In this document: positions 50,408 through 51,639 of the stretch, in pieces | Layout of the letters: each line of letters opens with the position of its first letter | Numbering within the stretch: position 1 is the stretch's first letter | From: a virus | Lineage: Duplodnaviria > Heunggongvirae > Uroviricota > Caudoviricetes | Direction: 5' to 3' (one strand) | IMG/VR virus record: IMGVR_UViG_2880372215_000005 | DNA: 56,474 nucleotides | Notes under the pieces: generated by a model | What the model saw: only the letters and a program-made list of their open reading frames with translations | Told to the model about the DNA's origin: nothing | Database searches by the model: none | Program-made: the position numbers and the translations under genes

Positions 50408-50707
50408 ATGGCGCTTTATATTGATATCAGCGCCATTGCCGGACAGGTAAGAGTTATCAGAGCGGTAACTAAGCGGTATGCGCCTTTACTTCAGAAAGTC
50501 TCTGGTGAGTGCACCGAAGATATTGTCAACGATTTCGTCATCGAACTGCGAGGACTCATCTTCAGTTACAAGGTGACCACAATTTTTGCAGATGGCTCCC
50601 GCGAAACTGTCAGAGCCCTGCGGCTTAAAGGATGTGTCAAAGACTTAGCCACCACATTCTGGGCAAGAAAACTTGATTGTATTCATAACCAATTTCCTCT
50701 CGAGTAA
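50408..50707 (+). CDS. hypothetical protein
   Basis: 99-aa ORF. Confidence 0.3.
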   Translation: MALYIDISAIAGQVRVIRAVTKRYAPLLQKVSGECTEDIVNDFVIELRGLIFSYKVTTIFADGSRETVRALRLKGCVKDLATTFWARKLDCIHNQFPLE

Positions 50708-50779
50708 CAGACCCCTCAGAGGATACCACCTCGCCTGACGTGGTTAAAAAGCAGGCAACGCTAACCACAAGGAGCCGAC

Positions 50780-50998
50780 ATGCAGAAACGAGACCCCGTC
50801 ATCATCGCGCCAGACTATACCGATGATGAACTTTATGAGTGGATGCACCAGAAAATTAAGGCGGTGCAGGACCTGAAATGGGCCAATGAAGCCAGGGCTA
50901 AGCAGGCTGAAAATCTGTCCGCTCTGGAGCAGGATATCACCAATCTGGAAAAAGCAGCGGCATTAAGCATTGCCAGAATGATTACATACCCACGTTAA
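50780..50998 (+). CDS. hypothetical protein
   Basis: 72-aa ORF preceded by AAGGAG. Confidence 0.35.
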   Translation: MQKRDPVIIAPDYTDDELYEWMHQKIKAVQDLKWANEARAKQAENLSALEQDITNLEKAAALSIARMITYPR

Positions 50999-51020
50999 TA
51001 GCTAACCAACGAGGCTAATA

Positions 51021-51428
51021 ATGGAATTTAAAGATTTACCAACGCCATTACAGGAAATGGCATCGAATATAGTTCGTTCACAACTGGCTACTCTTGACCT
51101 TAGTACCGCAGAAAAAGAAACCATCGATAATATGGTTCGTAATGTGCGCAATGCTTTTTCTGGGCTATATGGTTCTGATAATCAAAAGCAGGAAAGCGAT
51201 GTTAATAAACGGGTAATTTCTGTTTGCGTGAATGGCCATGTTCTTTCATCAATCAAAACAGAAACGGCGACAGTCTTCGATTGCCTTTGCATTGTACAGA
51301 GCCTTGTTGATGCCCTGTTTCGTTCAGTGAATTTAGAAAATGATGCAAATCTGCGAGGGCGCATAATAGCACATCCATATGCACATACTTTAGGCTCTGT
51401 GGATATCAAAGATCCCACAAATCTTTAA
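51021..51428 (+). CDS. hypothetical protein
   Basis: 135-aa ORF preceded by GAGG. Confidence 0.35.
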   Translation: MEFKDLPTPLQEMASNIVRSQLATLDLSTAEKETIDNMVRNVRNAFSGLYGSDNQKQESDVNKRVISVCVNGHVLSSIKTETATVFDCLCIVQSLVDALFRSVNLENDANLRGRIIAHPYAHTLGSVDIKDPTNL

Positions 51429-51639
51429 TGAAATAGTTAACGCGAATTGTACTTGCTCTTTCGGTTGCTTTCAGAATACGCGTTGAAACTGCTGGCGGTA
51501 ATTTGGTATTCCATTTATTAAAATCATGCCCGGGAAAGTACTCTTCGAAAATACTTTTAACTGCAGACTCGCCTATTGAAATGCTGCTTACCATGCGATT
51601 TTGATAAAGGCATTTAGCAATAAGAGTTGATTTTAACAT
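51406..51639 (-). CDS. hypothetical protein (convergent with the preceding ORF)
   Basis: 77-aa ORF. Confidence 0.25.
   Translation of the reverse strand: MLKSTLIAKCLYQNRMVSSISIGESAVKSIFEEYFPGHDFNKWNTKLPPAVSTRILKATERASTIRVNYFIKDLWDL

Follow-up and report, generated by a model that had tools for sequence, protein, structure and literature searches.

What do the small open reading frames (ORFs) between the repressor gene and the cell-division inhibitor gene of a lambdoid prophage encode, and do any of them form a system of their own? The question is raised by a 56,474-nucleotide (nt) stretch of DNA (hereafter the window; IMG/VR record IMGVR_UViG_2880372215_000005, Caudoviricetes) that corresponds to prophage Sp9 of Escherichia coli O157:H7. 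Indeed, its interval 50150-52000 (1.85 kb) is 100% identical to Sp9 of strain Sakai and to the same prophage in strain EDL933, whose counterpart is called genomic island OI-57 in typing papers, and 98.9% identical to the "PPompW" phages of studies on Shiga toxin (Stx) phages. A preliminary description of the window had noted here four small ORFs of 99 (50408-50707, plus strand), 72 (50780-50998, plus), 135 (51021-51428, plus) and 77 amino acids (aa; 51406-51639, minus), the last being convergent, and had treated them as one block and as the best candidates for an undescribed small system. All four ORFs lie where they were reported and are annotated in RefSeq for EDL933 and Sakai (ECs_5719, ECs_1764, ECs_1763 and ECs_1762, respectively), but the interval comprises three separate things: an inactivated zinc-ribbon gene on the minus strand, for which ORF99 is an annotation artefact, ydfC (ORF72, a named family), and a two-gene cassette made of ORF135 and ORF77. 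The expectation of an undescribed system may thus hold for the ORF135/ORF77 pair, which is conserved and uncharacterised, and not for ORF99 and ORF72. We consider this pair a good candidate for a new prophage exclusion-and-antidote module, which in kind resembles prophage exclusion or toxin-antitoxin (TA)-like two-gene modules.

The cassette (51019-51652, 634 bp) is an exact insertion relative to the Qin prophage of E. coli K-12, located between the end of ydfC and the leader of dicF; at this site, positions 2562 and 2563 of the K-12 locus (L003) are contiguous. It reaches from 2 nt before the ATG of ORF135 to 13 nt beyond the ATG of ORF77, includes the strong Shine-Dalgarno sequence of the latter (GGAGGG), and was found in 651 of 5426 complete E. 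coli genomes, mostly Shiga-toxin producers. Within it, the two genes meet tail to tail and share 23 nt (51406-51428). This arrangement is conserved in prophages of Enterobacterales, where 90 of the 91 loci with an ORF77 homologue carry a convergent gene encoding the domain found in the C-terminal part of ORF135 (hereafter the partner domain), corresponding to 42 unique pairs from many genera. The co-occurrence across prophages that had been proposed as a check was therefore present. The 3' overlap measures exactly 23 nt at 84 of the 91 loci and 26 nt at three, the rest being frameshifted or truncated copies. In prophages of Serratia, Dickeya and Klebsiella, the ORF77 homologue lies tail to tail with a gene of 77-79 aa, which is the first gene downstream of a cI-type repressor in most of these loci. 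Remote ORF77 members with informative contigs were also paired, namely at loci L101 (again with a 23-nt overlap) and L106 (partner match with an E value of 7e-20), and one very distant member sits in a chromosomal context without a partner. Forward-gene variants of 201 aa retain the partner domain without ORF77, so that the partner can exist alone, whereas ORF77 essentially never occurs without the partner. Moreover, the divergence of the two proteins is correlated (r = 0.71). The conserved core of the locus is thus ORF77 plus the C-terminal partner domain of ORF135, placed tail to tail with a 23-nt overlap. We found no description in the literature of this pair or of the other, polymorphic convergent pairs that occupy the same site (see below).

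Both ORF135 and ORF77 are genuine genes. For ORF77 this follows from the purifying selection acting on its family (median ratio of non-synonymous to synonymous substitution rates, dN/dS, of 0.20 over 127 pairs) and from the experimental detection of the protein (PMC7618764). Its homologues in Klebsiella, Serratia, Dickeya, Yersinia, Salmonella, Morganella, Xenorhabdus, Photorhabdus and Proteus are 55-72% identical and almost always 77 aa long, and a profile search against 1.84 billion representative proteins returned 157 clusters, nearly all of them 74-78 aa long and stand-alone; scans of IMG/VR with three remote relatives gave no matches. The AlphaFold2 model of ORF77 is highly confident (predicted local distance difference test, pLDDT, 97.3) and consists of a compact, all-helical globular domain of five helices, for which the fold search revealed no neighbour among PDB structures. 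Structure prediction, which had been proposed as a check, was hence productive for ORF77, if without a fold match, but not for ORF135 (pLDDT 44.6). ORF135 and ORF77 had no match in Pfam, NCBIfam, PADLOC or PDB sequences, searches of these resources with all four ORFs yielded no significant result, and profile searches with the ORF77 family and with the partner domain against PDB sequences and Pfam retrieved nothing. The statement that the four ORFs belong to no recognisable family is consequently correct for ORF135 and ORF77, but not for ORF72, which is YdfC (a named family without known function); ORF99 is most likely a shadow ORF. No membrane segment was predicted in any of the four ORFs (highest 19-residue Kyte-Doolittle mean ≤1.58; 0.59 for ORF77), a result that speaks against a SieB-like protein among them. 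One public source labels the exact ORF77 sequence (51409-51639, minus) as "dGTP triphosphohydrolase"; no support for that name was found.

Experimental data on ORF77 come from a recent study in which ECs1762, which is ORF77 according to the Sakai annotation, was significantly enriched in the RNA-associated proteome (TRAPP) of uninduced enterohaemorrhagic E. coli (EHEC) Sakai, and in which the tagged protein was labelled above background in a polynucleotide kinase (PNK) assay of ultraviolet (UV)-cross-linked RNA (PMC7618764, 2025). According to its authors, the protein has no detectable RNA-binding domain (PMC7618764). Its production in the uninduced lysogen fits an exclusion or moron gene.

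ORF135, which is annotated in RefSeq in both EDL933 and Sakai and has been singled out as EHEC-specific, serving as a typing and PCR marker (ECs1763), is a composite protein. Its N-domain (51021-51191), which starts with MEFKDLP and has two predicted helices, matches phrogs 6937, 2151 and 9419 over residues 1-63 only, and alignments showed that this module of ~50 aa is common to many E. coli prophage proteins with unrelated C-termini. The first ~33 residues (51021-51120) are of the ..TPLQEMASNIVRSQLATLDLS.. type that is seen on other C-terminal variants, while most 135-aa relatives carry ..KEIQTIAATTLGDSLVKIDPA..; judged from these alignments, the difference indicates recombination inside the N-domain. 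The remainder of the protein is the partner domain (51192-51428, phrog_23433), in which residues 58-135 are 35-43% identical (E values of 1e-14 to 1e-18) to the stand-alone 77-79-aa proteins encoded opposite ORF77 homologues; the C-terminal half of ORF135 contains the conserved motif ADY...LE.EAN..G+T..H. Distant stand-alone partners were recovered from the ORF77 loci; a homology search with the partner domain alone had missed them owing to its word filter. Four forms of the domain are known: it stands alone, or it is preceded by the MEFKDLP module (E. coli ORF135 being an example), by a YdfC-like domain (in prophages of the Yersinia type) or by a ClpX-type zinc finger. In the last case, at an IMG/VR locus (L085), the partner gene convergent to the ORF77 homologue carries a fused ClpX-type C4 zinc finger (PF06689, zf-C4_ClpX, 2.9e-8), and this domain composition hints at dimerisation or at a link to ClpXP. 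The structure prediction of ORF135 gave no usable model, and the protein was left out of the fold search; the low-confidence model begins with two helices, continues with a beta-hairpin and a long helix, and lacks regular structure over its last 25-30 residues; it is compatible with a flexible partner but does not show one.

The pair is one of several that alternate at this site. In each of the five E. coli variants examined, a different convergent small ORF abuts the 3' end of a MEFKDLP-type forward gene. Besides the 135-aa/77-aa pair of the window, with its overlap of 23 nt, these are forward genes of 201 aa (convergent ORF of 63 aa, 3' overlap of 23 nt), 133 aa (64 aa, 41 nt), 208 aa (69 aa, 0 nt) and 124 aa (73 aa, 11 nt). 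That the 63- and 64-aa convergent proteins could be remote homologues of ORF77 was rejected by profile comparison (hhalign probability ≤0.2%). All five variants share a leader upstream of the convergent gene (51640-51790, minus, in the window) with three hairpins (51663-51681, 51689-51712 and 51739-51754). Qin of K-12 keeps this three-hairpin leader as a relic (L003, 2563-2690) without a cassette: either the cassette was lost from Qin, or the leader has a role in the processing of DicF, encoded on the opposite strand. In the 133-aa variant (L097, 3057-3150, minus), the conserved Shine-Dalgarno sequence and ATG belong to a 27-codon ORF that terminates immediately ahead of the annotated 64-aa convergent gene, so that translation of the two may be coupled. 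In other E. coli prophages of this type, known TA modules are found between the repressor and ydfA/ydfC, namely PaaA2-ParE (L099, 1194-1672) and HigB with a helix-turn-helix (HTH) partner (L105, 507-1171). The immunity-proximal region serves in general as a landing site for small modules of two genes.

The preliminary description had compared this slot with that of sieB in the Rac prophage. In Rac of K-12, the gene order is racR, ydaG, ydaF, sieB (convergent, with a 4-nt 3' overlap with ydaF), the kilS small RNA (sRNA), kilR and onward to recE, and in the window it is repressor, small ORFs, ORF77 (convergent), the dicF sRNA, dicB and onward to an exonuclease. ORF77 therefore occupies the same slot in the same orientation as sieB, that is, against the early-left operon, with small promoter-proximal ORFs preceding it, an sRNA and a division inhibitor following it, and a 3' overlap with the upstream gene; in addition, ORF77 homologues outside E. 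coli have a promoter module homologous to that of sieB. For ORF77 the comparison is thus well founded in position, orientation and the promoter module of its relatives, but it does not extend to the protein, and the closest organisation is that of the Qin dicBF operon. BLASTP against Rac SieB gave no match, none of the ORFs matched SieB in Pfam or PHROG, and SieB is a membrane protein, of 162 aa in Rac, whereas ORF77 has 77 aa and no predicted membrane segment. The sieB/esc genes of phages P22 and lambda provide superinfection exclusion together with self-immunity, and sieB of P22 comes with an antidote (esc) and antisense RNA control. The antidote that we propose for the window would differ from esc in being a separate gene on the other strand rather than an internal translation product.

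The promoter module upstream of the non-E. coli ORF77 homologues consists of an inverted repeat around a -35-like TTCACC or TTAACC; an extended -10, GTGGTATCTT, comes after a gap of 2-4 nt, and the ATG lies 40-44 nt further on. The arms of the repeat (GCCTG/CAGGC, GCCTGA/TCAGGC or GCCGGG/CCCGGC) vary by lineage with their complementarity kept. The module lies ~40-70 nt upstream of the ORF77 homologues in L004, L012 and L083-L095, and before Rac sieB (L110, Rac of K-12, ~2565-2610, plus) it reads GCCCGG-N16-CCGGGC and then GGTGGTCTC. Another copy belongs to the zinc-ribbon gene of the window (50723-50756, minus; GCCTG-N15-CAGGC around the -35 element TTTAAC, then the extended -10 TGGTATCCT) and is the sole match in the 56-kb window, with 0 expected. 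A portable promoter-like module (inverted repeat around the -35, then GGTGGTATCTT) hence precedes unrelated, counter-oriented small genes of lambdoid early-left operons, namely sieB, the zinc-ribbon gene and the ORF77 homologues. For E. coli ORF77, no sigma-70 consensus promoter could be placed; the candidate TTTTCA-17-TAAACT agreed by eye at only 8/12 positions.

Our preferred explanation for the pair, which we hold to be plausible though short of an even chance, is that of sieB/esc-like superinfection exclusion with a built-in antidote, ORF77 being a lysogen-expressed effector and the partner an early-lytic antidote. In such a scheme, a promoter of its own would drive ORF77 in the direction opposite to the early operon, and the protein would be made in the lysogen, acting there as the effector, possibly on RNA. 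The partner domain would be made only when the left promoter fires, that is, upon induction or from an incoming phage, and would bind and neutralise ORF77 through its conserved and possibly flexible C-terminal segment, with the YdfC, ClpX-zinc-finger or MEFKDLP N-modules rendering it oligomeric. With the two genes transcribed towards each other and overlapping at their 3' ends, one state would exclude the other. Functionally, the pair would correspond to sieB/esc, such that related superinfecting phages are excluded while the antidote permits the prophage's own lytic growth, and such a role would account for the at least five non-homologous combinations of a forward C-terminus with a convergent small gene in E. 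coli prophages. A parallel can be drawn with Nun, the exclusion protein of HK022, which binds RNA and is made by the prophage from a gene next to cI, given that ORF77 is likewise small, prophage-expressed, immunity-proximal and RNA-associated; ORF77 differs in showing no arginine-rich motif by eye, in its all-helical globular fold, in its orientation and in belonging to a mostly acidic family.

Several points weigh against this explanation. Adjacent genes are co-inherited and linkage alone inflates co-occurrence, so neither the co-occurrence nor the correlated divergence proves an interaction. The absence of partner expression in the lysogen is an assumption based on the location of its gene downstream of an operator-controlled promoter, and the promoter of E. 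coli ORF77 itself could not be recognised by consensus: no site reached 9/12, and the repeat arms and TTCACC remain without a recognisable -10. The model of ORF135 is too poor for claims on disorder or on an interface. With an isoelectric point (pI) of 9.5, E. coli ORF77 is unusual in a family with a median of 5.5 and mostly acidic members, and its RNA association may for this reason be lineage-specific or non-specific. Finally, PADLOC assigned none of the four ORFs to a defence family.

The roles could also be reversed, a reading that we regard as unlikely: the forward proteins would resemble polymorphic toxins and act early in the lytic cycle as effectors that are toxic or that serve host takeover, and the convergent small proteins, including ORF77, the cognate immunity against a leaky early operon or against the effector of an incoming phage. 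A constant N-domain with at least five unrelated C-termini, each abutted by its own unrelated convergent small ORF, is in line with such a reading, and it recalls CdiA-CT/CdiI and Rhs-CT/RhsI, where a constant N-terminal region is followed by hypervariable C-termini and an adjacent cognate small gene; the 201-aa variant even looks like an older C-terminus displaced by a new unit of C-terminus and small gene. The dicBF operon is, moreover, highly toxic on expression (PMC5069750), and over-expression of ORF77 was tolerated in the published assay (PMC7618764). Yet ORF77 cross-links to RNA when expressed alone (PMC7618764), which implies an activity beyond partner binding, the partner domain persists in the 201-aa variants, where ORF77 is missing, and fusion to presumed dimerisation modules suits a binder or antidote better than a toxin. 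No toxin family was matched and, unlike the Cdi and Rhs proteins, these are small cytoplasmic phage proteins without a secretion or delivery domain or a recognised toxin domain, and the small gene faces the forward gene instead of following it in the same orientation. Distinctly unlikely in our judgement is an addiction or abortive-infection pair of the TA type, in which both proteins would be made in the lysogen, with ORF77 as a stable RNA-targeting toxin, the partner as a labile antitoxin, and the 3' overlap adding antisense RNA control. The strict pairing of two small genes, one of which folds confidently while no confident model was obtained for the other, is reminiscent of type II systems, and in the window a basic ORF77 is combined with an acidic ORF135 (pI 5.3); an orphan partner is tolerated and an orphan ORF77 is not, the toxin LsoA was also recovered in the TRAPP screen (PMC7618764), and known TA modules (PaaA2-ParE, HigBA) occupy the same prophage neighbourhood elsewhere. 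However, the two genes are convergent and not co-transcribed in one operon, the partner stands behind an operator-controlled promoter in the window, the published assay could be run with ORF77 over-expressed from pBAD (PMC7618764), the ORF77 family is mostly acidic, and no similarity to toxin or antitoxin families was detected (by Pfam, NCBIfam, PADLOC and PDB sequence for both proteins, and by fold search for ORF77 only). The convergent 3'-overlap geometry is shared with type I systems such as txpA/RatA and bsrG/SR4, but there a hydrophobic peptide faces an antisense RNA, whereas here both genes encode conserved proteins without predicted membrane segments and neither is a small hydrophobic peptide of that type.

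Very unlikely, in turn, is the idea that ORF77 is an RNA-binding regulator of the early-left/dicBF transcript, acting for example on the leader hairpins or on DicF processing, with the partner as anti-regulator and the pair as a post-transcriptional lock on a toxic operon. It would make sense of the RNA association of ECs1762 (PMC7618764), of a gene that adjoins both a conserved hairpin-rich leader and dicF, and of the convergent placement within the operon, but the gene lists of the Serratia, Dickeya and Klebsiella loci, where the pair follows cI, show no DicB (dicF itself was not searched for), and the ORF77 family is not generally basic. From the position of these pairs after cI and the DicB-free gene lists, we conclude that the conserved function is probably independent of DicF. 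Just as improbable is that ORF135 and ORF77 are unrelated hitch-hikers in a shared recombination unit: lambdoid early regions are mosaics of small unrelated genes, in which linkage alone gives co-occurrence, but the pairing and the geometry of the overlap are still seen at protein identities as low as ~35-40% and across different genomic neighbourhoods, with all the surroundings reshuffled, including the N-terminal fusions of the partner.

Returning to the exclusion-and-antidote reading, we tentatively suggest its extension to the site as a whole, although this generalisation is more likely wrong than right. The sieB slot of lambdoid prophages, located between ydfC and the sRNA or division-inhibitor genes, would then be a polymorphic locus of antagonistic pairs, each made of a lysogen effector encoded against the early operon and a cognate early-lytic antidote that corresponds to the C-terminus of the forward gene; convergent transcription with overlapping 3' ends would work as a switch that keeps the two apart. 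Among such pairs, that of ORF77 and its partner would have the widest distribution and would be a new family built on a fold without a solved match, of which the E. coli member may act on RNA.

The surrounding genes place the cassette in a well-described setting. The order in the window is Cro/DicC-like, DicA-like, the four ORFs, DicF, DicB, a YdfD-like DUF1482 protein, an 823-aa exonuclease, excisionase and integrase. The rightward operon starts with the Cro/DicC-like regulator (49433-49660, minus; Pfam P22_Cro, 3.2e-13; 83% identity to K-12 DicC), which is divergent from the DicA-like HTH repressor of 135 aa (49737-50144, plus; Pfam HTH_3, 4.3e-14; 63% identity to K-12 DicA). The latter consists of the HTH domain only and lacks the S24 self-cleavage peptidase domain that the repressors of the Serratia and Klebsiella relatives possess; presumably, induction of Sp9 therefore needs an antirepressor or another route. 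Two operator-like sites at 49697-49735 recur inverted in the left operator and promoter region (50219-50272, plus, equivalent to dicBp; repeats I1, 15 nt, 93%, and I2, 17 nt, 82%), where they flank the -35 element TTGACC at 50243 of a promoter-like site (50243-50272), and the leader that follows (50278-50336) is 95% identical to that of the K-12 dicB operon. Given these inverted operators around a -35 and this leader, the interval belongs to an early-left operon of the Qin/dicBF type that is under repressor control, and forms its promoter-proximal part; such an operon has been described in K-12 (PMC5069750).

Further downstream, a DicF copy overlooked in the preliminary description (51889-51938, plus; Rfam RF00039) is full length and collinear with K-12 dicF at 94% identity, despite a score below the Rfam gathering score (43.5 bits versus 48; E value of 2e-7). 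The neighbour that had been called kilR-like is not KilR but dicB, encoding the cell-division inhibitor (52113-52301, plus; Pfam PF05358, DicB, 1.7e-37; 89% identity to K-12 DicB). Two other similarities touch this region: a weak Rfam match to STnc100 between dicF and dicB (51927-52132, plus; 32 bits versus a gathering score of 47), and 81% identity of 51926-52097 to the Rac segment just upstream of kilR, up to the edge of the annotated kilS sRNA. The nearest described organisation is hence the Qin dicBF operon (dicA/dicC - ydfA ydfB ydfC - dicF - dicB - ydfD) and not Rac. The window is collinear with and homologous to this operon, sharing the divergent regulators of the DicA/DicC type, an operon behind an operator-controlled promoter, and ydfC, dicF, dicB and ydfD in the same order, with identities of 94% for YdfC and the YdfD-like protein and of 93-95% for the dicF and leader DNA. 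It differs from Qin at two places, namely in having the minus-strand zinc-ribbon gene in place of ydfA and ydfB, and in carrying the 634-bp cassette.

The zinc-ribbon gene (50486-50686, minus) belongs to the ECs_2282 family with two CxxC motifs; the intact allele of strain AR_0014 matches NCBIfam NF047912 (ECs_2282_CxxC) with 57.3 bits (1e-15; cut-off of 37 bits). In the window it is a pseudogene with TAA in place of GAA at codon 14 (50645-50647), a stop codon present in 17 of 26 related copies, the other 9 being intact. To compare the two overlapping frames, we used the nine DNA variants represented by these 26 copies, with 15 polymorphic sites in the 201-nt overlap, and measured binomial p values against the expected synonymous fraction. 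In the zinc-ribbon frame, 12 changes were synonymous and 3 non-synonymous, one of them the stop (p = 1.6e-6), whereas the same sites gave 2 synonymous and 13 non-synonymous changes in the frame of ORF99 (p = 0.37). Selection has thus acted on the minus-strand gene, and ORF99 (ECs_5719, WP_001240336) was rejected as a real gene: it is most likely a shadow ORF. Its relatives are found only at ≥95% identity, no Shine-Dalgarno sequence was seen by eye, and in other E. coli strains (97-98.6% identical over the segment) the NCBI pipeline calls a 66-aa "ECs_2282 family putative zinc-binding protein" on the opposite strand instead. ORF99 is annotated in RefSeq because the true gene is broken in the O157 lineage, and the zinc-ribbon pseudogene on the other strand should replace ECs_5719.

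ORF72 is ydfC (ECs_1764), as named in RefSeq; its product, predicted to be helical or a coiled coil, is 94% identical to K-12 YdfC over 72 aa (phrog_1744, 9e-39), and its polymorphisms (20 synonymous versus 15 non-synonymous, p = 3e-6) reveal coding selection. In Yersinia-type prophages, a YdfC-like domain and the partner domain are fused in one protein (phrog_1744, 5e-15, and phrog_23433, 1e-16). On the strength of this fusion, three of the four ORFs, namely ORF72, ORF135 and ORF77, probably belong together, with ydfC linked to the pair.

The dicBF operon, YdfC and the zinc-ribbon family are thus already known, and what is new is the ORF77/partner pair, together with the polymorphic set of convergent pairs at its site, which match no family or solved structure. 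For ECs1762, the finding that it is one half of a strictly conserved tail-to-tail pair in the sieB slot supplies a genetic context as well as a cheap, concrete hypothesis. If the pair is indeed an exclusion-and-antidote module, it would represent a new family and a polymorphic locus for prophage-encoded phage defence, and would give the first functional lead for YdfC.

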